Below are positions 1 to 59,649 of a stretch of 64,000 nt of DNA, piece by piece. The stretch's first letter is position 1. Every line of letters begins with the position of its first letter. The translations under genes were made by a program, and so were the position numbers. This DNA is from an uncultured Dehalococcoidia bacterium (GTDB lineage: Bacteria; Chloroflexota; Dehalococcoidia; DSTF01; JACRBR01): assembly GCA_964458665.1 (NCBI GenBank), contig CAYWOO010000192.1, positions 6,984 to 70,983 of the forward strand, in the 5' to 3' direction. The notes under the pieces are model-generated. The model saw only the letters and a list, made by a program, of their open reading frames with translations. It did no database searches and was not told the origin of the DNA.

Positions 1-32
1 TGTATCAGCAACCAGGAACCGAGACGACACCT

Positions 33-4014: not shown

Positions 4015-5598
4015 ATGACCGACCTCATCCTTCGCAACGCGCAGATCTGGACCGGCGACGCCACCGCGCCGTATGCCGATACCGCGATCGTCCGTGACGG
4101 GCGTTTCGTCTTCGTCGGACGCTCGCAGGATGCGGCGGCTCCGTCCGACGTGGACGTGTTCGACGCGGGCGGACGACTCGTTCTGCCCGGCTTCACCGAT
4201 AGCCACGCGCACCTGCTCGGCACTGGCCTCGCGATGCAGTCGGTCGATCTGAAAGGCGTGCCGAGCGTGGCCGAGGCGCTACAGCGGGTCGCCGAGCGCG
4301 TCGCTGTATCGCCGGAAGGCGCCTGGGTGCGCGGCGCGGGTTGGGACCAGCACGACTGGCCGGGCGCGCGCTTCCCGCATCGGCGCGAACTCGACACCAT
4401 CGCGCCGGAGCATCCGGTCGTGCTTACGCACACCTCCGGCCACTGCGTCTGGGTGAACAGCGCGGCGCTCCGCGCCGCCGCCATTACCGCAGCGACCATC
4501 GCGCCGACGGGCGGAGCGATTGACATTGGCGACGACGGCGCGCCCACGGGCATCCTGCGCGACAACGCGTCGCGCCTCATCAGCGATGTCGCGCCGAAGC
4601 TGGCACGGAACGAGCGCATCACCACGATGGAGCAGGCGATCGCACACGCGCACAGCCTCGGTGTAACCGGCGCGCACGCGATGGATGTCGGGCGCGGCGA
4701 ACTGCAGGCATTGCACGCGCTCAACGACTCCGGACGGCTGCGATTGCGCGTACGGCCCTTCATGTCGGCTGGCGCGCTGGACGAGTGGTTCGACCGCAAC
4801 CTGGCTACGGGCGACGGCGGCGATATGCTGCGCATCGGCGGCGTGAAGTTCTTCGCCGACGGCGCGCTCGGCTCCATGACGTCATGGATGCTCGAACCGT
4901 GCGAGGGCAGCGATGACACCGGCCTGGCACTCCAGCCGGCCGGCGAACTGGAGCGCGACGTGCGCCGCTGTCTCGAACACGGCCTGGCGACCGCCATCCA
5001 CGCAATCGGCGACCGCGCGAACCGCGAAGTGCTCGACATCATCGCCCGGACGCAGAACGTCGCCCCGGATCTGCCGCGACGCATCGAGCACGCGCAACTG
5101 CTGGCGGCGCCCGACATCGCACGCTTCGCCTACTACGGCGTGACGGCATCGGTGCAGCCGATCCACGCGACGCAGGATATGGCGAAGGTCGATCGGGCAT
5201 GGGGCGCCCGCGGCGTCGGCGCCTACGCGTTCGCGTCGCTGCGCAGCCTGGGCGTCAATCTCGCATTCGGGTCCGATACGCCCGTCGAGACGATGGATCC
5301 GCTCGCCGGCGTACAGGCCGCCGTCACGCGCCGCAACGCCGCGGGCGAGCCGCCCGGCGGCTGGTATCCGCAACAGCGACTGACTGCCATGGAAGCCATC
5401 GCGGCGTACACAACGGGTGCAGCCGAGGCCGTGCGCGAGAGCGCGACCCTCGGCCGGATCGCGCCCGGCTACCACGCGGACTTCGTCCTGCTTTCCGAAA
5501 ACATCCTCACGGCCGCCGATCCGATGCGCATCGCGGATGCGCGCGTCGAAGCAACGGTGGTCGGCGGCGAAATCGTCTATCGGCGATCTGCCGTGTGA
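4015..5598 (+). CDS. Amidohydrolase-family metal-dependent hydrolase (YtcJ-like)
   Basis: 527 aa. N-terminus LILRNAQIWTGD...LPGFTDSHAHL carries the HxH metal motif. The C-terminal GSDTPVE and ADFVLL motifs are typical of Amidohydro_3 proteins. Confidence 0.8.
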   Translation: MTDLILRNAQIWTGDATAPYADTAIVRDGRFVFVGRSQDAAAPSDVDVFDAGGRLVLPGFTDSHAHLLGTGLAMQSVDLKGVPSVAEALQRVAERVAVSPEGAWVRGAGWDQHDWPGARFPHRRELDTIAPEHPVVLTHTSGHCVWVNSAALRAAAITAATIAPTGGAIDIGDDGAPTGILRDNASRLISDVAPKLARNERITTMEQAIAHAHSLGVTGAHAMDVGRGELQALHALNDSGRLRLRVRPFMSAGALDEWFDRNLATGDGGDMLRIGGVKFFADGALGSMTSWMLEPCEGSDDTGLALQPAGELERDVRRCLEHGLATAIHAIGDRANREVLDIIARTQNVAPDLPRRIEHAQLLAAPDIARFAYYGVTASVQPIHATQDMAKVDRAWGARGVGAYAFASLRSLGVNLAFGSDTPVETMDPLAGVQAAVTRRNAAGEPPGGWYPQQRLTAMEAIAAYTTGAAEAVRESATLGRIAPGYHADFVLLSENILTAADPMRIADARVEATVVGGEIVYRRSAV

Positions 5599-5656
5599 CT
5601 ACGGGCCATCCGGCCCCTGCGACACCGCCACGTCTTTCGAGTAACCTGACACTGGC

Positions 5657-6910
5657 ATGAGCAAGACATGGATCGTCGCCGCGCTCACCATTGCACTCGC
5701 CTTGACGGCGTGTGACAGCCGTATCAAGAGTTCATCGGTCAACACGCCCGCAGCCGGTTCGAGTGCTACCGCCGCCGCGCCACCCGCTCCGACGCCCGTT
5801 CCGGTTTCCGTGCCGCCCAAGCCCGCATCGTTCTCCGACTACGCGCCCGTGATCGCCGCGTACCTCACGGCGGATCCCGCGGCGGCTGGTGATACGTGCC
5901 TCGCCGACCTCATCGCGGCGTGGAAGATGCCACTCGTGATAGCCGCAGCTGGCTGCATCGCCGCGAACACGGACGAAGACCTCGAGAGCGAGGTCGTTGC
6001 CGTGCTGACGACGAAGCTCACGACGCCCAGCGCAACCACGGACACACAGTTCACGATCGTTGTGTTCGGTCCTTCGCCCAACGGCTTCAAAGTAGCCTAC
6101 GAGTCCGGCCCGAACGACGTCGTCCCGCCCGGCACGACGCAGCCGATCAAGCCGCTGCTGGCCGCCGGCGATCTGAACAAGGACGGTGGCGGCGAACTGG
6201 CATTCCTCACGGCGAGCTGCGGCGCGAGTACGTGCATCCAGACGGTGCATATCCTCAAGGGTACGGCCGCGGGCTACGTGTCGATTGCCCCGCCTGACGG
6301 GATCTCGATGCCGTTCGCCGACGCGAAGTTCGAAGACGTGGAGGACGACGGTGCGAAGGAGCTGCTGCTCCACGGCGGCGCGCAGGGCAGCGCCGGCGCC
6401 GGGCCGCAGCGCACGCGCACGGAGACGTGGGCATGGAACGGAGCCGCGTACGCGCTCCGATCGACACAGCAGGACAAGGCAACGTATCTCTATCACGCGG
6501 TGAAGGATGCCGACGCGCTGTTCACGGCCGCAAAGTACGGCGACGCCGAAGCGGCGTACGCGGCGGTCGTCGGCGATTCGTCGCTGCTGGCGTGGATGGA
6601 GGAAAAGCACGAGCGTAACGAGCTGCAGTCGTACTCCTTGTTCCGCGCCGGCCTCGCCTTGCTGCTGGCGGGCGGCGACACCGCGAAGGCGAACGCCTAC
6701 TTCGATCGCGCACGTTCCTACCAGCCGCAGACACTGCACGACCAGCTCGCTGGCTCGTTCAAGGCGGGATACGCGGCGAAGGGCAGCGTCAGCGTCGGCT
6801 GCGCGGCCGTGCGCGACGATATCGCCGCGAATCTCGCGGAATACCAGGCGTTTTGGGACTTCGGCTACGCAAATCCGCCGTTCGACGCCGACACGATCTG
6901 CCCCTTCTGA
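5657..6910 (+). CDS. Putative lipoprotein with FG-GAP-like Ca-binding segments
   Basis: Signal peptide with lipobox LALTAC, then an Ala/Pro-rich linker. Contains AAGDLNKDGGGELAF and FEDVEDDGAKELLLHGG segments. The C-terminus is helical and TPR-like. Confidence 0.6.
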   Translation: MSKTWIVAALTIALALTACDSRIKSSSVNTPAAGSSATAAAPPAPTPVPVSVPPKPASFSDYAPVIAAYLTADPAAAGDTCLADLIAAWKMPLVIAAAGCIAANTDEDLESEVVAVLTTKLTTPSATTDTQFTIVVFGPSPNGFKVAYESGPNDVVPPGTTQPIKPLLAAGDLNKDGGGELAFLTASCGASTCIQTVHILKGTAAGYVSIAPPDGISMPFADAKFEDVEDDGAKELLLHGGAQGSAGAGPQRTRTETWAWNGAAYALRSTQQDKATYLYHAVKDADALFTAAKYGDAEAAYAAVVGDSSLLAWMEEKHERNELQSYSLFRAGLALLLAGGDTAKANAYFDRARSYQPQTLHDQLAGSFKAGYAAKGSVSVGCAAVRDDIAANLAEYQAFWDFGYANPPFDADTICPF

Positions 6911-6946: not shown

Positions 6947-7861
6947 ATGAGCGTGAAGCCCGACGCCGCGTCGAATCTCTACTACGGCGGCCAGGCCGTG
7001 ATGGAAGGCGTGATGATTCGCGGCCCGCGCCACATGGCGATCGCCGTGCGCGCGCCCGATGGCACGATCGTCCGCCGCGGCGAAGCACTGAACGGCGTCT
7101 ACACCGGCTGGCCGCGACGCATCCCGATCCTCCGGGGCATGGTGGTGCTGTACGAGACGCTCGCGCTCGGCGTCCGCGCATTGACGTGGTCGTCGCAGGT
7201 CGCGCTCGGACAGGAGGAGGAGGACGTCGGCTCCACGCAGCTCGCAGTGACGCTCGGCGTCATGTTGCTGCTCGTCGCCGTGATCTTCTTCGCCGGGCCG
7301 GTGCTGCTCACGAGCTGGCTCGGCCGCGTCCTCGGCAACGACTATGGCGAGGTGATCGCCGAAGGCCTGCTGCGACTCGCGATGCTCGTCGGATACATCT
7401 GGCTGATCGGCCGCATGCGGGACATACAGCGCGTCTTCGCCTATCACGGCGCCGAGCATCGCACGATCCATGCGTACGAGCACCGGCGCGCGCTGACGGC
7501 AGCGAACATCCGCGAGTATCCGAACGCGCATCCGCGCTGCGGCACGGCGTTTCTGCTCACCGTCATGGTGATCTCGCTCGTCGCGTTCGTGCTGCTCGGC
7601 ACGCCGCCGATCTGGCTGCGTATCGTCGAGCGCATCGTGCTGATCCCGGTCATCGCCGCGCTGGCGTACGAGGTGCTGCGGCTGGCCCAGCGCTTCGAAA
7701 GGAACGCCGCGTTCTCGCTCCTCTACCGCCCCAACATCTGGCTGCAATCGTTAACGACGCGCGATCCCGACGACGCGCAGATCGAGGTCGCCGTCGCGGC
7801 GCTCGAGCACGTCATCGCGCTGGAGTCGGGGTCGGCAGTGGGTCGCGATGCTGCGGGGTGA
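6947..7861 (+). CDS. DUF1385-family membrane protein (YqhQ-like)
   Basis: YYGGQAVMEGVMIRGP... near the N-terminus, GAEH and HPRCGT motifs, and several TM helices. Confidence 0.75.
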   Translation: MSVKPDAASNLYYGGQAVMEGVMIRGPRHMAIAVRAPDGTIVRRGEALNGVYTGWPRRIPILRGMVVLYETLALGVRALTWSSQVALGQEEEDVGSTQLAVTLGVMLLLVAVIFFAGPVLLTSWLGRVLGNDYGEVIAEGLLRLAMLVGYIWLIGRMRDIQRVFAYHGAEHRTIHAYEHRRALTAANIREYPNAHPRCGTAFLLTVMVISLVAFVLLGTPPIWLRIVERIVLIPVIAALAYEVLRLAQRFERNAAFSLLYRPNIWLQSLTTRDPDDAQIEVAVAALEHVIALESGSAVGRDAAG

Positions 7862-7890
7862 GCACGATGCGAGGCGGCTGGCACAAAACG

Positions 7891-8149
7891 CGCACCTCAC
7901 CCCGGCCTTCGGCCACCCCTCTCCACGACGTGGAGAGGGGATCCACGCGGAGTGTGTCGCTCTAGTCGAACGTTCATTCCACAGAGAAACTGCGATCGGC
8001 GCATGGAGCGCAGGCGCCCCGCCCGTACCACACTCCGTTTCCGGAACTGCAGTTCTCGCCGCCGCCAAATCCACGACGGCACCAGACCAAGTGTCGAAAC
8101 GCTCCCTCTCCACAATGTGGAGAGGGGTGGCCAACGGCCGGGGTGAGGC
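7891..8149. repeat. Inverted pair of family A REP-like elements flanking a family E element
   Basis: Forward copy at 7891..7943: GCACCTCACCCCGGCCTTCGGCCACCCCTCTCCACGACGTGGAGAGGGG. Reverse copy at 8104..8149: CCCTCTCCACAATGTGGAGAGGGGTGGCCAACGGCCGGGGTGAGG. A family E element lies between them at 8001..8031. Confidence 0.85.
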
Positions 8150-52375: not shown

Positions 52376-52395
52376 CTCCGCGCGTTGCGCCAGGA

Positions 52396-52558
52396 CGCGC
52401 ACCTCACCCCGGCCTATCGGCGGGACCCCACCTCCGCGCTTCGCGCTGGTCCTCTCCGCCCGGCGGAGAGGAGTGGCGAACGATATCGTGCGTGGCCGGA
52501 TGTTCTCACGGGTGCGGGTGGCATCGGCGGGCGGTACGGGCAGGGCGGACACACAAGT
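52396..52558. repeat. Family A variant plus family C hairpin
   Basis: Family A variant at 52396..52472: gcgcacctcaccccggcc...ctctccgcccggcggagaggag. Family C at 52530..52558: gcagggcggacacacaagtccgcccctat. Confidence 0.8.
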
Positions 52559-52617
52559 CCGCCCCTATGGTGATCGATCGTGGACAGTTGGACTGGTCAT
52601 ACGGCAGGAGGTTACGG

Positions 52618-53139
52618 ATGTCGAACGAAGATCCGATGGTGCTTGCGGCGCGCGGCGTGCTGGCGACGGCGCTCGCGGCGATACGCGGGTGCGTCGAGAG
52701 CGCGTCGCCGGAAGCGCTGAACTGGCGGCCCGGTGGCGATGATACGAGCTCGATCGCAGTGCTCGCCGTGCACTCGCTTGCCAGCACGCGCGGATGGTTG
52801 GCGCGAGCCACTGGTGCGCCGCGGCCGTATCGACATCGCGACGATGAGTTCGCAGTGGTGGCGACGGACGCGGCATCGCTGCTGGTCACCTTCGACGAGA
52901 TCGCGCGCGACTGCACGGCGCTGCTCGCGCAGCCGGTTTCCGTCGATTGGAACGCGATCCTGCCGGATGTCGAGCGTATTCCGGACGGCATGCAACTGCG
53001 CACGGCGTCGACGCCACCGGAGCGCGGCTCGCCCGAGGCGGTGTCCGCGGGATGGGCGCTGATTCACGCACTGGAGCATCTGCGCGAGCATGAGGGGCAG
53101 ATGTTTCTGACGCGGCAGCTGTGGGATCGGCGGGCGTGA
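52618..53139 (+). CDS. DinB-family protein
   Basis: ATG at 52618 after AGGAGG. Four-helix-bundle-like with conserved His positions (AVHSL, HALEHLREHEGQ). Confidence 0.7.
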   Translation: MSNEDPMVLAARGVLATALAAIRGCVESASPEALNWRPGGDDTSSIAVLAVHSLASTRGWLARATGAPRPYRHRDDEFAVVATDAASLLVTFDEIARDCTALLAQPVSVDWNAILPDVERIPDGMQLRTASTPPERGSPEAVSAGWALIHALEHLREHEGQMFLTRQLWDRRA

Positions 53140-53276
53140 CCTCACCTCCGCGCTTCGCGACGGTCCTCTCCGCCCGGGGAGAGGAGGGCGACCGTGCGTA
53201 CGCGAACGGACGTAAGACGTGTGCGTGCGTCATCGGCTGCATTACGAGCAGGGCGGACACACAGGTCCGCCCGTAC
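53139..53276. repeat. Family A variant plus family C hairpin (same pairing as at 52396..52558)
   Basis: Copies at 53139..53187 and 53248..53276. Confidence 0.8.
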
Positions 53277-53351
53277 AGCGACCGATCGCGCACGCCATAG
53301 AGTTATGCGAAACGCTGCATAGTTGGTGACGGCGATCCGTTAGGCTTCACG

Positions 53352-54737
53352 GTGAGTTTCGAGCGGTATCACGAAGCGGTGGACTATCTGCAGCGGCGGC
53401 TGTGGCACGAGCTGCCGATTGTGCCTGTCGAGCGGGCGTTGCAGGCGCGTATCCGGCAGGTGCTGGCGGAGTTCGGCGATCCTCAACTGGCGATGCCCGT
53501 CGTGCACGTTGGCGGCAGCGCGGGTAAGGGTTCGACGTCGACAATGGTTGCTGCGATCTTGCAGGCCTCTGGTCTGCGGACGGGGCTGTACACATCGCCG
53601 CATCTGCAGACGTTCATCGAGCGCATCGCCATCGACGGGCGGTTGATCGCGCCGGATGAGTTCGCCGATACGGTGCTGGGGCTGGAGCCGCTGGTGCGGA
53701 AGATGCATCTCGACGTGCTCGATGGCGCCGGTTTCGGGCGGCCATCGCTGGTGGAGGTGGCGTTCGCGACGGGCATGCGGCACTTCGCGAGCGAGCGGTG
53801 CGACGCGGCGGTCGTCGAAGTGGGGTTGGGCGGCCGCACCGATTGCACCAACGTCTTTGACGAGAAGCGCGTGACCGTGTTGACGAACGTTGAGTTCGAG
53901 CATCGCGAGCGGCTGGGATGGACGCTGGAGTCGATCGCGCGCGCGAAGTCGGCGTTGATCCGCGGGCGCGAGATGGTCGTTGCGGGCTCGCTTCGTCGCG
54001 AGGCGATGGCGGTGATCGAAGCGCGATGCGCGGAGACGGGCGCGACGCTATGGCGGTTGGGGCGCGAGATCCGCGTGTCGCGGCACCCGGCGGGTGATGC
54101 GGGCGTAACGTTCGATGTGCGGACGCCGCTCGGCACGGTGCACGGGCTGCAGACATTGCTGCTGGGCGATCATCAGATCACGAACGCTGCGCTGGCGGCG
54201 GCGGCGGCACTGGCGTCCTTCGGCGCATGTGGCGACGCGCAGGAGCGGACGATACGGTGCGGGCTGGCGGCGGCCCGGTTGAACGGCCGGTTGGAATGCA
54301 TGCAGGAAGGGCCGCGCGTACTGCTCGATTCCGCGCACAATCCGGTGGAGGCGCAACATCTGGCGCGCACATTGCGCGCAGAGATGGCGCGACGCGGCGG
54401 GCGGCTGCACCTGGTGTGCGGGATTCTCGACGACAAGGATCAGGCATCGATGGTGCGCGCGCTGGCGCCTGTAGCGGCGCGCGTGACCGTGACACGGCCA
54501 CCGCTGGTCGAGCGCGCGGGCGATCCTGCCCGGATGGTGGCGCTGTTCCAGAAGGTGCTTGGTGACGATGCGGTGACGTTGGAGGCGCATCCGCAACGCG
54601 CGGTGGATCGGGCGATTGCAGACGCCGCGGAGGGCGATGTGGTGTGCGTGACCGGATCGATGTTTCTTATTGGGGCTGTGCGCGCGCGGTGGGTGGCGGA
54701 AGAGCGGATTCTTGAAGCGCGGTCGGCGGCGTTGTAG
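53352..54737 (+). CDS. folC: Bifunctional folylpolyglutamate synthase / dihydrofolate synthase
   Basis: VVHVGGSAGKGST P-loop, GLYTSPHL, and VVEVGLGGRTDCTN. Confidence 0.9.
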   Translation: MSFERYHEAVDYLQRRLWHELPIVPVERALQARIRQVLAEFGDPQLAMPVVHVGGSAGKGSTSTMVAAILQASGLRTGLYTSPHLQTFIERIAIDGRLIAPDEFADTVLGLEPLVRKMHLDVLDGAGFGRPSLVEVAFATGMRHFASERCDAAVVEVGLGGRTDCTNVFDEKRVTVLTNVEFEHRERLGWTLESIARAKSALIRGREMVVAGSLRREAMAVIEARCAETGATLWRLGREIRVSRHPAGDAGVTFDVRTPLGTVHGLQTLLLGDHQITNAALAAAAALASFGACGDAQERTIRCGLAAARLNGRLECMQEGPRVLLDSAHNPVEAQHLARTLRAEMARRGGRLHLVCGILDDKDQASMVRALAPVAARVTVTRPPLVERAGDPARMVALFQKVLGDDAVTLEAHPQRAVDRAIADAAEGDVVCVTGSMFLIGAVRARWVAEERILEARSAAL

Positions 54738-54745
54738 GCGGCGGG

Positions 54746-54781
54746 CCTCACCCCGACCCTCTCCGCCGGGCGGAGAGGGAG
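54746..54781. repeat. Short family A variant
   Basis: cctcaccccgaccctctccgccgggcggagagggag. Confidence 0.75.
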
Positions 54782-54826: not shown

Positions 54827-55441
54827 ATGGATTTCTTTGAGGTAGCGAATACGCAGCGGGCGATGCGGCGGCTGCACAGCGATCCGATTCCGGATGCGGA
54901 GCTGTGGAAGATCCTCGATGCGGCGACGAAGGCGCCGAACGGCGGCAACCGGCAGCCGTGGAACTTCGTCGTGGTGCGCGATGCGGAGGTGAAAACGAAG
55001 ATCGCCGGGTGGTACCTGGAGGCGTGGAACAAGATGTACGGCGGCGCGCTGAAGGATGCCATGCTTGCCGACGTGAACATGGCGAAGACGTTCCGATCCG
55101 CCGACTACCTGGCGAACCACATGGCCGACGTGCCGGTGCTGGTGCTGGCGACGATCAAGAAAGACATGGTCGCCATCGGGCCGACGTTGGGCGCATCGAT
55201 CTATCCGGCCGTGCAGAACCTGATGCTGGCGGCGCGCGCGCTGGGGCTCGGAACGGCGCTGACGACGCTGCACAAGATGCATGAGGACGACGTGAAGGCG
55301 CTGCTTGGCATCCCTGACGACGTCGAGACGATGGCGCTGATCCCGATCGGCCGGCCGAAGGGCGAGTTCGGTCCGGTGCGGCGGTTGCCAGCCGAAAAGG
55401 TCGTGTACTGGGACGGCTGGGGCAAGCAGCGCACTCGCTGA
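54827..55441 (+). CDS. Nitroreductase family protein
   Basis: Trimmed to the ATG at 54827. RRLHSDPIPDAELWKILDAATKAPNGGNRQPWNFVVV. Confidence 0.85.
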   Translation: MDFFEVANTQRAMRRLHSDPIPDAELWKILDAATKAPNGGNRQPWNFVVVRDAEVKTKIAGWYLEAWNKMYGGALKDAMLADVNMAKTFRSADYLANHMADVPVLVLATIKKDMVAIGPTLGASIYPAVQNLMLAARALGLGTALTTLHKMHEDDVKALLGIPDDVETMALIPIGRPKGEFGPVRRLPAEKVVYWDGWGKQRTR

Positions 55442-55491
55442 GCGAACCGCCGGCGCGGCGGAATCGTACGTGTGTTGGGGGGCAGAGAGGA

Positions 55492-56109
55492 ATGGCGGGC
55501 ATGACCCGTCCGTACAGGCTGGGCAAGCGCGCGGAGCAGGCAGCGCACACGCGGCAGCGCATTATCGATGCGGGGCGCGATCTCATCATAGAAGGTGGCA
55601 TCGGCGAAGCGAGCCTGGACGCTATCGCGCGGCGTGCCGGTTCGACGCGCACGACCATCTACGATCAGTTCGGTTCGCGCCAGGAGTTGCTGCTGGCCGT
55701 CATGAATGACGCCCTGGACCGCGCAGACGTGCGCGAAGTACGGAAGGCGTTGCAGCTTCGCGATCCGGTGCAGGCGATGCGGCGGACGATCCGAGCATCG
55801 TGCCGGTTCTGGGCGGGGGGCCACATACTGTTCGCGCAGGCAAAGGCGTTGGCGCTGGTGGATGCAGAGTTGGCAGCGATCGACGCGATCAAGGAAGGCG
55901 TGCGGCGCGGGCATATCACGAATCTGACGGGCCGCCTCAACGACGGCGGCTGTCTGCGGGCGGGCTGCTCCAGGCGTGCAGCGCTGGACACGCTGCTGTT
56001 CGTGACGAGCTTCGAGACGTTCGATCAGCTGCACGGGCGGTCTGGGATGTCGGTGGACGCAACAGCAGCGGCGCTCGTCGATATGGCGTCGCGGGAGTTG
56101 TTGGGGTAG
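55492..56109 (+). CDS. TetR family transcriptional regulator
   Basis: RQRIIDAGRDLIIEGGIGEASLDAIARRAGSTRTTIYDQFGSRQELL is an HTH. Confidence 0.9.
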   Translation: MAGMTRPYRLGKRAEQAAHTRQRIIDAGRDLIIEGGIGEASLDAIARRAGSTRTTIYDQFGSRQELLLAVMNDALDRADVREVRKALQLRDPVQAMRRTIRASCRFWAGGHILFAQAKALALVDAELAAIDAIKEGVRRGHITNLTGRLNDGGCLRAGCSRRAALDTLLFVTSFETFDQLHGRSGMSVDATAAALVDMASRELLG

Positions 56110-56117
56110 GAGGGAAA

Positions 56118-56340
56118 CCTCACCCCGACCCTCTCCGCCTCTCCTGCGGCGAGCAGGCCGGCGGAGAGGGGGACGACGCCATGCGCCCGGACGTGCAGGT
56201 GTACTGCGTCGATCCGGCGCCGGACTCACAGCCGAGGACGGCTATGCCACCACGCTTCGCGTCTTGTGATCGGGCGTCGATGCTTGAACTTACGCTGGCC
56301 GCCTGACGAGACGGGCGGGGCGCCCGCGCTCCATTCTGAG
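56118..56340. repeat. Family A variant (56118..56171) and a reverse family E element (56310..56340)
   Basis: cctcaccccgaccctctccgcc...ggcggagaggggg, and gacgggcggggcgcccgcgctccattctgag. Confidence 0.8.
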
Positions 56341-56374
56341 TGTCGGCCGCACTGGTCGAGCCGCCGGTTGGCTG

Positions 56375-57994
56375 ATGCCGCGCGCGCTTGCTACGGTGTC
56401 GCACACGATGGCTGATTCGCTTCCGCACTTTTCGCTTGCTGATGCTGCCGGCGCCGCGCGTGCGTTTCCTGCGGGACGGCATGCGTTGCTCTGCTTTGTG
56501 AAGCAGGACTGCCCGACGTGCGTACTGACGCTGCCGTTGATTGAGGCGGCGCATCGCGCGTTCGGCCGGGCGATCGATGTGTGGGCGATCTCCCAGGACG
56601 ACGCGGCGGCTCGTGTAGCGGTGGCTAAAGCGCACGGTCTTACGATGCCGCTGCTGGACGATTCCGCGCTGGCGGTTTCGTTCGCGCACGACCTCGATAC
56701 GGTACCGACGATCATCCTCGCGGACGGCACGGGCACGGAGCTGCGCCGGTTCGTTGGGTTTGGGAGGTCGGACTGGCAAGAACTGTACGGCGAGCTTGCT
56801 GCGATCAGCGGCGTCGCGACGCCAGAGATCGACTGGTCGTCGTATCCGGAGATGCGGCCGGGTTGCGGATCGAAATTCGTCGATCCGGCGATTGCTGAGC
56901 GACTGCTCGCCGAGTCGTCGGGGAGCCCGCTGCGGGCGCGTCGCATCGAGATCGCGGACTCGGACGATGTGTTCGAGTTCATGTTCGACCAGGGGCTGAC
57001 GGATGGGCTGCCTGTGGTGCCGCCGACGCCGGAGCGCGTGCTGCACATGCTGGCCGGCACGAAGCGCGCCGCCCAGGACGTCGTGGCGATCGTGCCGCCG
57101 AACATGGCGCCGGCGACGGTCGAGAAGGTCGCCGTGAACGCGGTGATGGCGGGCTGCACGCCGGAGTATCTGCCCGTCGTCATCGCCGCGCTGGAAGCCG
57201 TGTGCACCGATGAGTTCAACATCCACGGCGTCAACTCCACGACGTGGGGTGCGACGCCGACTCTGGTCGTGAACGGGCCGATCCGCCACCGCATCGGCAT
57301 GAACATGGGGCTGAACGCGCTCGGCCAGGGCAACCGCGCCAACTCGACGATCGGGCGCGCGCTGAAGCTCGTGCTGCGCAACGTCGGTGGCGCGAAGCCG
57401 TCCGGCACCGAGCGGCCGACGTTGGGCTGGCCGGGGCGCATCACGTCGTGCTTCGCCGAATGGGAGGAGCGCAGCCCATGGGAGCCGCTGCACGTCGAGC
57501 GCGGCTTTCGCGCGGACGAGAACGTTGTCACCGTGATCGCGACGGAGGGGCCGCATCAGATCGCCGACCAGGTGTCGCGCACGGCGCACGCGCTGGGCGG
57601 CAGCATCGGCCTGGGGCTGGAAGCGTTCTGGCACCCGAAGAGCCACAACCAGGGCGACATCTTGCTGGTGATCTGTCCGGAGCACGCCGACACGCTCGCT
57701 CGCGACGGCTGGACGAAGGCCGATCTACGCGCGCGCATTCAGCAGATCACGTCGCGACCCATGCGGGACCTGCTCGGCGATGACGAAAGCGGCGAGGGGC
57801 ACCAGCGAAGCTGGTACGGCGCGGCGGGCCCGACGGAGGCACAGCTTGCGACGCTCGTGCCGAAGTTCCGCGCGCCAGAGTACATTCACATCGCCGTCGC
57901 CGGCAGCGAAGCGGGCAAGTTCTCGACAGCGTACGGCGGCTGGGTGCTGGCGCCGATCGGGTCGAACCCTGTGAGTCGCAAGATCGAGGGCTGA
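56375..57994 (+). CDS. Thioredoxin-like (CPTC) domain fused to a large uncharacterised domain
   Basis: 539 aa. N-terminal LLCFVKQDCPTCVLTLP thioredoxin-fold motif, then RPGCGSKF, then about 370 aa with no motif I recognise. An alternative start lies at 56408. Confidence 0.75.
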   Translation: MPRALATVSHTMADSLPHFSLADAAGAARAFPAGRHALLCFVKQDCPTCVLTLPLIEAAHRAFGRAIDVWAISQDDAAARVAVAKAHGLTMPLLDDSALAVSFAHDLDTVPTIILADGTGTELRRFVGFGRSDWQELYGELAAISGVATPEIDWSSYPEMRPGCGSKFVDPAIAERLLAESSGSPLRARRIEIADSDDVFEFMFDQGLTDGLPVVPPTPERVLHMLAGTKRAAQDVVAIVPPNMAPATVEKVAVNAVMAGCTPEYLPVVIAALEAVCTDEFNIHGVNSTTWGATPTLVVNGPIRHRIGMNMGLNALGQGNRANSTIGRALKLVLRNVGGAKPSGTERPTLGWPGRITSCFAEWEERSPWEPLHVERGFRADENVVTVIATEGPHQIADQVSRTAHALGGSIGLGLEAFWHPKSHNQGDILLVICPEHADTLARDGWTKADLRARIQQITSRPMRDLLGDDESGEGHQRSWYGAAGPTEAQLATLVPKFRAPEYIHIAVAGSEAGKFSTAYGGWVLAPIGSNPVSRKIEG

Positions 57995-58187
57995 CGGTTC
58001 ACCGCGGAGCCGCGGAGAGCACAGAGGAGGATTGGGGTTCGCCGCGGGGCCCGCAGAGAGCACTGAGGATAAGCCGTTGAGGCGGCCCTGCGTGGCCGCC
58101 CGCGGCGTGCGAATTGGTAGTTGCGTTCGCACCCGATGCGGGCGTAGGTTTAGCGCACGACGTGACGCGAACGAAACGGAGAACACG

Positions 58188-58709
58188 ATGACAACTATCA
58201 TCCTCGACCCGACGGACGAGCGGGTGCCGGTGCGCCGGGCGCTGACGGCGCGGCCGGAATCGATCACTGGCACCGTAGCGCTGCTGGATATCGGCAAGCC
58301 GCGGGGGAACGTGCTGATCGATCGGTTGCAGGTGCGGTTGGCCGACCGGCTGCCTGGCGTGGAGCTCAAGCGGTATCGCAAGCCGACGTTCACAAAGCCG
58401 GCGCCGGATGAGCTGCGCCGCCAGATCGCAAAGGAGTGCGGCTTCGTTATCGAAGCGCTTGCCGATTGAGGCTCCTGCACAACGTGCAGTGTGCACGACA
58501 GCGTCTGGTTCGAAATCAATAGCAGGCCCACGGTGTTCATCGCGTCGTCGGAGTTCGTCGAGGCCGCGGACGCGCAGGCGGTCGCGCTCGGGCTGCCCGA
58601 GGTGCGCCGTATCTTCGTGCCGCATCCGATCCAGGACGCGACGGACGATGAGATGCGCGCGAAGGCGGATGCGATCGTGGAGCAGATCATCGAGGCGTTA
58701 GTGGACTAG
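58188..58709 (+). CDS. Candidate selenoprotein with a U-G-S-C motif (in-frame TGA at 58467..58469 read as Sec)
   Basis: ATG at 58188 lies 6 nt after GGAG. Track ORFs 58032..58469 and 58491..58709 are in the same frame and separated only by the TGA. Joined they read ...IEALAD-U-GSCTTCSVHDSVWFEIN.... The downstream part has no ATG or SD of its own. Confidence 0.65.
58475..58495 (+). promoter_or_regulatory. SECIS-like hairpin(s) just 3' of the in-frame TGA
   Basis: Two alternative folds: CTGCAC-aac-GTGCAG (58475..58489), or TGCACA-acgtgcag-TGTGCA (58476..58495). They begin 6-7 nt after the TGA. Confidence 0.45.
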
Positions 58710-58740
58710 GGGTGGTGGAACCGCAGATCGCGCGGATCTC

Positions 58741-58782
58741 GCGGAGAGGGGACGACAGGCGGGGCGCCCGCGCTCCATTTTG
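58741..58782. repeat. Family A tail fused to a reverse family E element
   Basis: gcggagaggggacgac + aggcggggcgcccgcgctccattttg. Same orientation as the copy at 56310..56340. Confidence 0.8.
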
Positions 58783-58849
58783 CGGGTCGCTTTGTGCGCG
58801 GGATTGCTGCGGCTCTCGCTATCTCTAGTCGCGACGCGGGGAGAGTGCG

Positions 58850-59649
58850 ATGGACAACGATGATCAACAGCGCGTTGCGGCGGGCTACAACGCCGTGTAT
58901 GCGGCCATTCCGAAGAGTCCCACCTTGGCGCGCATCTGGCGCGAGCACGCTCTCGGGGATGACTATCCGGCGGGGTTCGAGCACATCAGCTTCGTCACGC
59001 TTGCAGAGCTCGGCACGATCGCGAGCGAGTTGCGGCTCGATGCCAACTCGGCGTTTGTTGATCTGGCTTGCGGCTTGGGGGGACCGGGGCTGTGGGTTGC
59101 TCGCGAGACGGGGGCGCAGCTCACGGGCATCGATCTGTCGTCGGTGGCGGTGGCCGGCGCGCGCGAACCCGCAGCCGGGTTGGGGCTGTCGGGCGTCGCG
59201 CAGTTCTCCGGTGGCACATTTGCAGAGACTGGCCTGAAGGCTGCGCGTTCAAGGGCGCGATGAGCTGTGACGCGCTGCAGTACGCGCCGGACAAACAGGC
59301 GGCGCTGAACGAGGCCGCGCGCATCCTCCGCCCCGGTGGACGACTCGTCTTCGCGTGCTTCGAATTCGACGCAGCGCGAGTGGCCGGTCTTCCTGTGCTC
59401 GGCACGGACCCGGTCGGTGACTATCGACCGTTGCTCGAACGGGCAGGCTTCGATGTATCGAGCTACGCCGAGACGCCGGGCTGGCGCGAACGACTGACGG
59501 CGGCGTATCAGGGCATCGCCGATGCGAAGACGTCGCTTGGAGACGAGATGGGCGTCGCGGCGTATTCCTCGCTGCTTGGCGAGGTGGCGCTCACGCTGCA
59601 GATACAGCCGTACCGAAGTCGCGTGCTCGTTTCGGCAACCAGACGCTAG
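58850..59649 (+). pseudogene. Class I SAM-dependent methyltransferase with a frameshift
   Basis: Frame 1 (58850..59263) has VDLACGLGGPGLWVA motif I and ends ...GGTFAETGLKAARSRAR*. The continuation ...GAMSCDALQYAPDKQAALNEAARILRPGGRLVF is in the frame of track ORF 59068..59649. The shift is near 59230..59240. Confidence 0.75.

Follow-up and report, generated by a model that had tools for sequence, protein, structure and literature searches.

The 64,000-nucleotide stretch of DNA analysed here (the window), positions 6,984 to 70,983 of contig CAYWOO010000192.1 from an uncultured Dehalococcoidia bacterium, carries a conserved two-gene module on its + strand. The first gene (56375..57994) encodes a 539-residue fusion of a thioredoxin (Trx) domain, a cysteine-bearing hairpin linker and an unannotated domain that we call X, and the second (58188..58709) encodes a 173-residue selenoprotein of the UGSC family. 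X and UGSC are a near-obligate pair across bacteria and archaea. We favor, with moderate confidence, the view that the locus is a self-contained, thioredoxin-driven two-component (seleno)reductase, in which X binds the substrate and UGSC supplies a selenocysteine (Sec)/cysteine pair. An earlier sequence-only reading had joined these genes to the co-oriented TetR-family regulator gene upstream (55492..56109) as a compact three-gene unit; all three reading frames lie where that reading placed them, but the conserved unit consists of the large protein and UGSC, two genes and not three.

The three window proteins were compared by tblastn with 80 orthologous loci, each from a different species genome, and UGSC lies directly 3' of the large gene on the same strand in 75 of them, usually 10-50 nt away. 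An alignment of stand-alone X retrieved 80 distant metagenome loci that are 43-60% identical to the query and mostly lack the Trx domain. There, UGSC adjoins X on the same strand, upstream or downstream, at 65 loci, and several of the negatives lie at contig ends. A reverse sample, picked through UGSC alone, covered 11 of the 12 plasmid records that hold a UGSC homolog, and X is directly adjacent in all 11 (E 1e-37 to 1e-151). The same adjacency recurs at three stand-alone X loci with precomputed annotation. The two proteins are also fused in both orders, UGSC-to-X (P0197, P0214, P0220 and P0230) and X-to-UGSC, and many gene calls of 415-425 residues start exactly at the post-Sec half of UGSC; these are Sec-containing UGSC-X fusions truncated at the TGA. 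The sequence-only reading had proposed that the two proteins are functionally coupled and had named a failure of the genes to co-occur in other genomes as evidence to the contrary. The adjacency and the fusions bear out the coupling, and no such failure is seen.

No other gene is conserved with the pair when all open reading frames (ORFs) of the 80 orthologous loci are clustered, and among the distant loci no third gene forms a cluster present in more than 9 of 84. Gene clusters found in 36 of the 80 orthologous loci were considered as conserved partners and set aside as clade-specific synteny. Zhang and Gladyshev (2008; PMC2398784) mention a ‘UGSC/Unknown_1 fusion’ and guess a Trx-like fold for UGSC. 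Because X is fused to UGSC in many proteins, the domain in the 2008 fusion is most likely X, and X is probably ‘Unknown_1’, an identification that comes from the fusions. A 2026 review still describes the UGSC family as functionally uncharacterized (PMC13188914). Across the literature searched, UGSC function is uncharacterized, and the near-obligate pairing, the Trx-X fusion, the trxA/trxB linkage and the GrdB/PrdB homology reported here are not described.

Several loci show variants of the pair. In haloarchaea, a Cys-type UGSC is flanked by paralogous X genes in the order X-UGSC-X', as on a Halorientalis litorea plasmid (L171, 3893-6573) and on plasmid 2 of Halalkalicoccus jeotgali (L175, 3618-6332). 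Judging from this arrangement, organisms that do without Sec may have a heteromeric form of the system. A DUF6282 gene recurs near the haloarchaeal pair, in two Natrinema species and in Halorientalis. On the IncP plasmid p2-T1 of Acidovorax sp. T1 (L169), a Sec-type (TGA) UGSC and X at 4905-6512 stand beside an IS91-like transposase; this plasmid is conjugative, and the X-UGSC module is therefore horizontally mobile. The p2-T1 record annotates only a 96-residue fragment of this region, a mis-annotation caused by the TGA. At a stand-alone X-UGSC(Sec) locus on a 4.4-Mb contig (L162; ENA contig ctg256807), a 336-residue AIRS/AIRS_C gene (1-185 of the locus) lies about 6 kb upstream. Its domains fit a SelD, PurM, ThiL or HypE type of protein, and it could encode a selenophosphate synthetase.

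The UGSC gene was the Sec candidate of the sequence-only reading, and the comparative evidence agrees with that assignment. A GGAG lies 8 nt 5' of its ATG, and the ORF is a single frame interrupted by one in-frame TGA (58467..58469; U94 in the motif D-U-G-S-C97-T-T-C100), which is followed by GGC TCC TGC (to 58478). With U read as C, the product scores 157.4 bits against a cutoff of 125 for NF041046, ‘UGSC family (seleno)protein’, and 158.5 bits against 25 for PF24696 (E 2e-46), which makes it a member, by curated cutoffs, of the family described in PMC2398784. Sequence and profile searches of the PDB with UGSC gave no match. TGA occupies the Sec position in all 74 orthologs that cover the site and in 59 of 65 distant X partners (59 Sec versus 4 Cys), and the Global Ocean Sampling (GOS) data hold 255 Sec and 21 Cys forms. 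Cys forms are present in cultured hosts. The dominance of Sec in all three sets fits a role in which Cys substitutes poorly.

A bacterial selenocysteine insertion sequence (SECIS) stem-loop is predicted immediately after the TGA, at 58472..58499. The RNAalifold consensus has stems at +5..7/+30..32, +9..13/+24..28 and +15..16/+22..23 and an apical GUGCA loop at +17..21. Among 69 unique sequences, 98.4% of the pairs are canonical in register, compared with at most 64% when the 3' partner is slid, and in four of them the C13-G24 pair is replaced by T-A, a compensatory change. In the same set, the third positions of codons +5..+9 hardly vary (entropy 0-0.11 bit), whereas other codons for conserved amino acids have a mean of 1.04 bit. 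The call rests on comparative evidence, because the folding energy of the single sequence is not exceptional against shuffles at the G+C of the window (z = -0.17) and an Rfam scan of 55300-59000 at E<=1 returned no match. The 64-kb window contains no tRNA genes of any kind. On this comparative evidence, the gene is a bona fide selenoprotein gene whose TGA is truly decoded as Sec. One ortholog, in the Proteobacteria metagenome-assembled genome (MAG) Centralia_89 (L042, UGSC at ~7602-8105), reads U-G-S-F-T-T-C, with Cys97 replaced by Phe and Cys100 kept. Unless this is a sequencing error, it hints that Cys100 may stand in as resolving thiol.

Comparison with curated families points to distant kin of UGSC. 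When 21 diverse UGSC members were scanned individually, 11 matched TIGR01917, glycine reductase selenoprotein B (best E 2.1e-5), further members matched TIGR01918, GrdF, GrdH and PrdB, and no other family recurred. Residues ~77-150 of UGSC always map onto residues 330-398 of the 431 in GrdB and 124-178 of the 238 in PrdB, ranges that include Sec350 of GrdB and Sec151/152 of PrdB (PMC3091704, PMC11229817). UGSC is therefore a remote homolog of the Sec-bearing segment of these enzymes. As in the selenoprotein B subunits of glycine, sarcosine and betaine reductase (GrdB/GrdF/GrdH) and of D-proline reductase (PrdB), which the models TIGR01917, TIGR01918 and TIGR04483 represent, its Sec belongs to a U-x-x-C motif that closes a β-strand and is followed by elements resembling G-x-P-T...PHP. 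GrdB and PrdB also work with a second protein, separately encoded or fused, as UGSC does with X, and share with UGSC a strong preference for Sec. In the scheme proposed for D-proline reductase, the Sec of PrdB attacks the α-carbon of proline bound to the pyruvoyl group of PrdA, and a Cys then resolves the selenoether to a selenide-sulfide, which is re-reduced (PMC3091704, PMC11229817). The PrdB U151C mutant is inactive in experiments (PMC11229817), which parallels the preference of UGSC for Sec.

UGSC also differs from these subunits. The ~330-residue N-terminal body of GrdB is absent from the 173-residue UGSC, and the partners GrdE and PrdA are pyruvoyl proproteins unrelated in sequence to X. 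Genes for GrdA, GrdC, GrdD, PrdC and PrdH are not present with X-UGSC. Moreover, the Grd and Prd systems belong to Stickland fermenters, whereas the hosts of X-UGSC are aerobic or environmental Chloroflexota, Binatia, Proteobacteria, Actinomycetota and haloarchaea.

The N-terminus of the large protein has the thioredoxin-like fold with a CPTC motif that had been read from its sequence. PF00578 (AhpC/TSA-type) matches residues 14-107 with 31.6 bits against a cutoff of 26, CPTC occupies residues 46-49 (56510-56521), and in sequence searches of the PDB a putative thioredoxin and ResA come closest, with a match to 2l5o at E 1.3e-5. A full-length AlphaFold2 (AF2) model built on a 70-sequence alignment has a predicted local distance difference test score (pLDDT) of 94.6 and a predicted template-modelling score (pTM) of 0.86, the latter indicating, within the limits of a model, a defined arrangement of Trx and X. 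In a Foldseek search of the PDB with this model, only the Trx domain was matched (ResA, DsbE and TlpA; TM-score ~0.85 on the target). The domain, residues ~14-145 (56414..56809), makes up 27% of a fusion that looks cytoplasmic.

The N-terminal 145 residues thus share fold and CxxC with ResA, TlpA and DsbE, but those proteins are membrane-anchored or secreted reductases of ~140-190 residues for cytochrome maturation, and the large protein is a 539-residue fusion. No hydrophobic anchor is found at its N-terminus, so it is not a classical exported TlpA or ResA, and the ResA model NF002854 gives 20 bits against a cutoff of 170. Nor is it a peroxiredoxin of the AhpC/PrxQ kind: the motif is F-V-K-Q-D-C-P-T-C and not P-x-x-x-T/S-x-x-C, and PrxQ scores 19.9 bits against 260. 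More than 7,973 homologs of ~530 residues have the fusion architecture. Where database entries give them a name, it is TlpA-family, redoxin or peroxiredoxin, and the label ‘TlpA family protein disulfide reductase’ fits the accessory domain and not the whole protein. At least 588 species genomes encode the large protein, mainly Chloroflexota/Dehalococcoidia and Binatia, and its nearest relatives are in Chloroflexota MAGs at 84-89% identity. Homologs begin near Met12 (56408) and AF2 residues 1-10 have pLDDT <50; the true start may be Met12. A fusion of comparable logic is PilB of Neisseria, a Trx-MsrA-MsrB protein in which a recycling thioredoxin module is likewise attached to catalytic reductase domains. 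The Msr domains are unrelated to X by family scans, however, and the X system requires a separate selenoprotein subunit.

Five cysteines are invariant in the orthologs: C46 and C49 of CPTC, C164 in RPGCGSK, C261 in NAVMAGC, and C359. The motif RPGCGSKF (residues 161-168; R-P-G-C164-G-S-K at 56855..56875, Cys164 codon 56864-56866) follows the Trx domain and forms a β-hairpin in the AF2 model (pLDDT ~91). The consensus (R/K)PGC(G/A/S)(S/A) occurs in 15 of 21 Trx-fused forms versus 2 of 71 stand-alone X forms, and is kept in all five monothiol variants, in which CxxC has become CPTS or CPTT. Because the linker travels with the Trx module and survives in these variants, Cys164 may well take part in the redox relay of the Trx domain, either shuttling or serving as an alternative resolving Cys. 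The likeness of RPGCGS to the UGSC motif is limited to the three residues C-G-S, with unlike flanks. We rejected the idea that RPGCGSK is a degenerate UGSC remnant, given this short overlap and the different settings, a β-hairpin turn for RPGCGSK and, in UGSC, the end of a strand within a Rossmann-like unit. The Trx domain is found at only 7 of the 80 distant loci, and it is, with its PGCGS linker, a clade-specific accessory and not part of the core.

That core is formed with UGSC by domain X (residues 186-539; 56930..57991), an unannotated α/β domain of ~350 residues. The sequence-only reading recognized nothing in the ~370 residues beyond the Trx domain, and indeed no Pfam or NCBIfam model matches them even at E<=10. 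An exhaustive HMMER search with X collected 5,388 representatives at 50% clustering; most are stand-alone proteins of ~350 residues, and every one seen is a ‘hypothetical protein’ without a Pfam domain. Residues that are invariant or nearly so across the family are D210, C261 (57155-57157), G301-P, N323, R328, C359 (57449-57451), E362, E364, W369 and H437, several of them within the motifs G-x-x-D210-G-L-P-x-x-P-P-T, A-x-N-A-V-M-A-G-C261-x-P and G-x-G-x-R-A-N323-x-x-x-G-R328-A. The domain-only AF2 model is confident (pLDDT 92.7, pTM 0.92), yet Foldseek finds no PDB match to it at E<=1e-3. Its best hits (TM-score ~0.2, probability <=0.54) are class-I fumarate hydratases and ‘Toblerone-fold’ amide hydrolases, at noise level. 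A profile search of PDB sequences with X returned nothing, and curated-family scans of 51 X relatives one by one gave no recurrent faint match. A kinship of X with GrdE or PrdA was also considered and dropped at the sequence level, as none of the 51 members matches the GrdE or PrdA models even faintly. With all these searches empty, X is an unannotated domain without a recognizable solved structure; the assignment to a well-known enzyme family that might have spoken against a redox role is not seen in the family, PDB-sequence or Foldseek searches. Four proteins of 709-741 residues (P0133, P0152, P0159 and P0165) carry two tandem X domains and no Pfam domain, an echo of the two-paralog arrangement in haloarchaea.

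Other genomes suggest where the electrons come from. The gene order is trxB-trxA-X-UGSC in Arthrobacter sp. ERGS1:01, X-UGSC-trxB in Roseovarius sp. THAF8 and trxB-TctC-SDR-X-UGSC in Variovorax sp. SRS16, and in V. boronicumulans a UGSC-X fusion is preceded by a TctC transporter gene and, two genes upstream of the fusion, by a gene for a TrxR-like oxidoreductase. Because trxB and trxA adjoin the pair as separate genes, the Trx fusion in the window reflects a general dependence on thioredoxin, and the fused domain of its clade is one way to supply thioredoxin electrons. Glycine reductase is fed in the same manner, from NADPH through thioredoxin reductase to thioredoxin (PMC3091704). The thiol/selenol relay between CxxC, CGS and UGSC sites imagined in the sequence-only reading holds in part: trxB/trxA beside the pair in Arthrobacter, Roseovarius and Variovorax argue for thioredoxin involvement, whereas the rarity of the Trx domain at distant loci argues against the Trx domain and PGCGS linker as its core.

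Hints about the substrate come from the plasmid and haloarchaeal neighbors. These include family-III coenzyme A (CoA)-transferases, CoA-ester/HMG-CoA lyases, enoyl-CoA hydratases, acyl-CoA and malonyl-CoA synthetases, TRAP, TTT and TAXI organic-acid transporters, proteins of the isocitrate-lyase/phosphoenolpyruvate (PEP)-mutase family, DUF6282 and, twice, phosphosulfolactate synthase. No single neighbor is frequent across the 84 distant loci. Because CoA-transferases, CoA-ester lyases and organic-acid transporters are among these genes, the neighborhood points loosely to a small carboxylic acid as a possible substrate; different paralogs may have different substrates.

We propose the following cycle for the two-component (seleno)reductase. 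X would be the substrate-binding, co-catalytic subunit, with polar residues D210, N323, R328, E362 and H437 and the near-invariant Cys261, and UGSC would be a miniature relative of the Sec part of GrdB/PrdB, with Sec94 as catalytic selenol and Cys97 as resolving thiol. Once the substrate is bound in X, Sec94 would attack or reduce it, in the manner of the Sec of D-proline and glycine reductase, and Cys97 would resolve the intermediate to leave a Sec94-Cys97 selenenylsulfide. The fused Trx domain (C46/C49) could then re-reduce the selenenylsulfide, with the hairpin Cys164 as shuttle or alternative resolving thiol, and the thioredoxin reductase of the cell, with NADPH, would recharge the Trx domain. 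What the data show directly is the partnership of X and UGSC, the decoding of Sec, the distant kinship of the UGSC Sec site with that of GrdB/PrdB and the genomic tie to the thioredoxin system. We infer that X and UGSC bind each other, in what order their thiols and the selenol react, that X is catalytic and what kind of substrate it takes.

Several observations weigh against this proposal. Five of the 80 orthologous loci have no UGSC within 6 kb, and Cys359 and even Cys261 are replaced now and then among X members. The best UGSC scores are 23.6 bits against a cutoff of 602 for TIGR01917 and 16.7 against 65.45 for TIGR01918, and only ~70 residues align. Since these scores fall far below the cutoffs and the N-terminal ~330 residues are missing, UGSC is a remote relative of the Sec module and not a member of the GrdB family. 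Because X has no detectable relation to GrdE or PrdA, the analogy with Grd and Prd may end at the Sec motif. Finally, no metabolic neighbor is conserved in the Chloroflexota/Binatia clade, so a housekeeping or defence role fits as well as a metabolic one.

A more specific version of the thioredoxin-driven reductase is doubtful, though it deserves to be spelled out. X and UGSC would then form an unrecognized and very widespread class of reductases with Stickland-type chemistry, in which X is a new fold that holds a small organic acid, one of whose carbons is attacked by the Sec (or Cys) nucleophile. The outcome would be reductive cleavage of a C-N, C-S, C-O or C-halogen bond. By analogy with the cysteinolysis in PrdA/GrdE, X might even carry an electrophilic cofactor made at the invariant A-G-C261 site. 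Such a class would range over aerobic and environmental bacteria and haloarchaea.

A role in antioxidant defence or repair, which we regard as unlikely, draws on the same lack of conserved metabolic neighbors in the window's clade, where the module looks autonomous. Here the pair would act as a (seleno)peroxidase dependent on thioredoxin, or would reduce oxidized protein or small-molecule thiols, with Sec94 reducing peroxides or sulfoxides and X acting as a scaffold or stabilizer only. The N-terminal domain does match the AhpC/TSA and Redoxin families, the module is widely spread in aerobic soil and water lineages, and, according to a reference (B55) that PMC3091704 cites, GrdB itself shows peroxidase activity and is stabilized by GrdE fragments. 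However, CPTC is of the thioredoxin type and lacks the peroxiredoxin pattern P-x-x-x-T-x-x-C, the PrxQ and ResA models scoring far under their cutoffs as described above. X is also large, and its invariant Asp, Asn, Arg, Glu and His over the 5,388 representatives resemble a substrate pocket more than a scaffold. In other lineages, moreover, the pair is placed in organic-acid/CoA-ester catabolic clusters, beside transporters and LysR/IclR regulators.

It is quite improbable that X is no enzyme and instead helps UGSC to mature, or carries or stores for it, for instance in the trafficking of selenium, sulfur or a metal, with conserved Cys and Sec ligating a metal or cluster common to both proteins. 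Cys261 and Cys359 of X with U94, C97 and C100 of UGSC could form such a joint site, the top though weak Foldseek matches are Fe-S-dependent class-I fumarate hydratases, and the AIRS/AIRS_C gene (SelD, PurM or HypE type) lies 6 kb from one stand-alone locus. Yet those matches are at noise level, X has just two conserved Cys, each of them replaced at times, and organisms with the Cys form, including haloarchaea, keep the pair though selenium handling is not implied. The adjacent trxB and trxA genes argue for turnover of a redox couple.

TetR regulators commonly control adjacent genes, and the window's TetR gene is confirmed as such (PF00440 TetR_N, E 2e-13). Co-oriented and 265 nt 5' of the large gene, it might govern both genes of the pair as a single regulon that responds to the substrate, but this is hardly probable: no TetR homolog adjoins the pair at any of the 80 orthologous loci searched by tblastn, the closest relatives at 84-89% identity included, LysR, IclR or GntR regulators neighbor the pair in other genomes instead, the TetR start is only 50 nt past the end of the nitroreductase gene, and the 265-nt gap carries two terminator-like hairpin elements. 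The first of these, REP-like (resembling repetitive extragenic palindromes) and terminator-like, spans the TetR stop codon (56100..56160, + strand; repeat families D4, D5 and I1; -30.2 kcal/mol, z = -2.36). The second is a 36-nt GC-hairpin element ~30 nt 5' of the large gene (56310..56345, + strand; repeat family D3). TetR is thus a neighbor outside the conserved module, and the ‘compact three-gene unit’ does not stand.

A second copy of the 36-nt element, 89% identical (GACrGGCGGGGCGCCCGCGCTCCATTyTG), lies 45 nt past the UGSC stop (58754..58789, + strand). Identified in a terminator scan as a hairpin plus T-run of -20.8 kcal/mol, it looks like an intrinsic terminator. The two copies bracket the two-gene pair, which may have moved as a cassette; alternatively, the element may simply be a terminator or REP used more than once. 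Between the stop of the large gene and the start of UGSC lie 193 nt (57995-58187), against ~10-50 nt in most orthologous loci, and this spacer holds an imperfect direct repeat (CCGCGGAGAGCACAGAGGAGGAT / CCCGCAGAGAGCACTGAGGATAA) that may be an inserted small repeat element.

Elsewhere in the window, whose G+C is ~66%, the neighbors are an AAA_33 kinase, a DinB-like protein, a Mur-ligase/FolC-like protein, the nitroreductase, a methyltransferase, an MBL-fold protein and a LysM-M23 peptidase, all functionally unrelated to the pair. Three co-oriented genes in a row, those for the AAA_33 kinase, the Mur-ligase-like protein and TetR, each have the REP-like palindrome (…CCTCACCCCGACCCTCTCCGCC-GGGCGGAGAGG) right at the stop codon (copies at 52384-52471, 54734-54778 and 56100-56160, respectively). 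An intergenic repeat of ~165 nt has two copies (52419-52585 and 53133-53293), 82-91% identical in matched blocks and 708-714 nt apart, which flank the DinB/mycothiol-S-transferase-like gene. The start that was called mechanically for this gene falls within the first copy, so the real start is probably further downstream. The S-adenosylmethionine (SAM)-dependent methyltransferase appears split over the overlapping frames 58850..59263 and 59068..59649, each with a partial methyltransferase Pfam match, as might result from a frameshift, from decay into a pseudogene or from faulty assembly.

Taken together, these observations bear on two large groups of proteins. Thousands of entries called ‘TlpA family protein disulfide reductase’ or ‘peroxiredoxin’ are named for an accessory domain, and ~70% of each such protein is a confidently folding domain without a Pfam model or a recognizable solved structure. 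UGSC, one of the most abundant uncharacterized environmental selenoprotein families, now has a near-obligate partner, a likely electron source in the thioredoxin system, and evolutionary kinship with the Sec site at which the Stickland reductases carry out catalysis. Cysteine versions exist in cultured, tractable hosts, namely Arthrobacter sp. ERGS1:01, Variovorax, Roseovarius and haloarchaea. With partner, electron source, Stickland link and such hosts in hand, the function of the family becomes directly testable.

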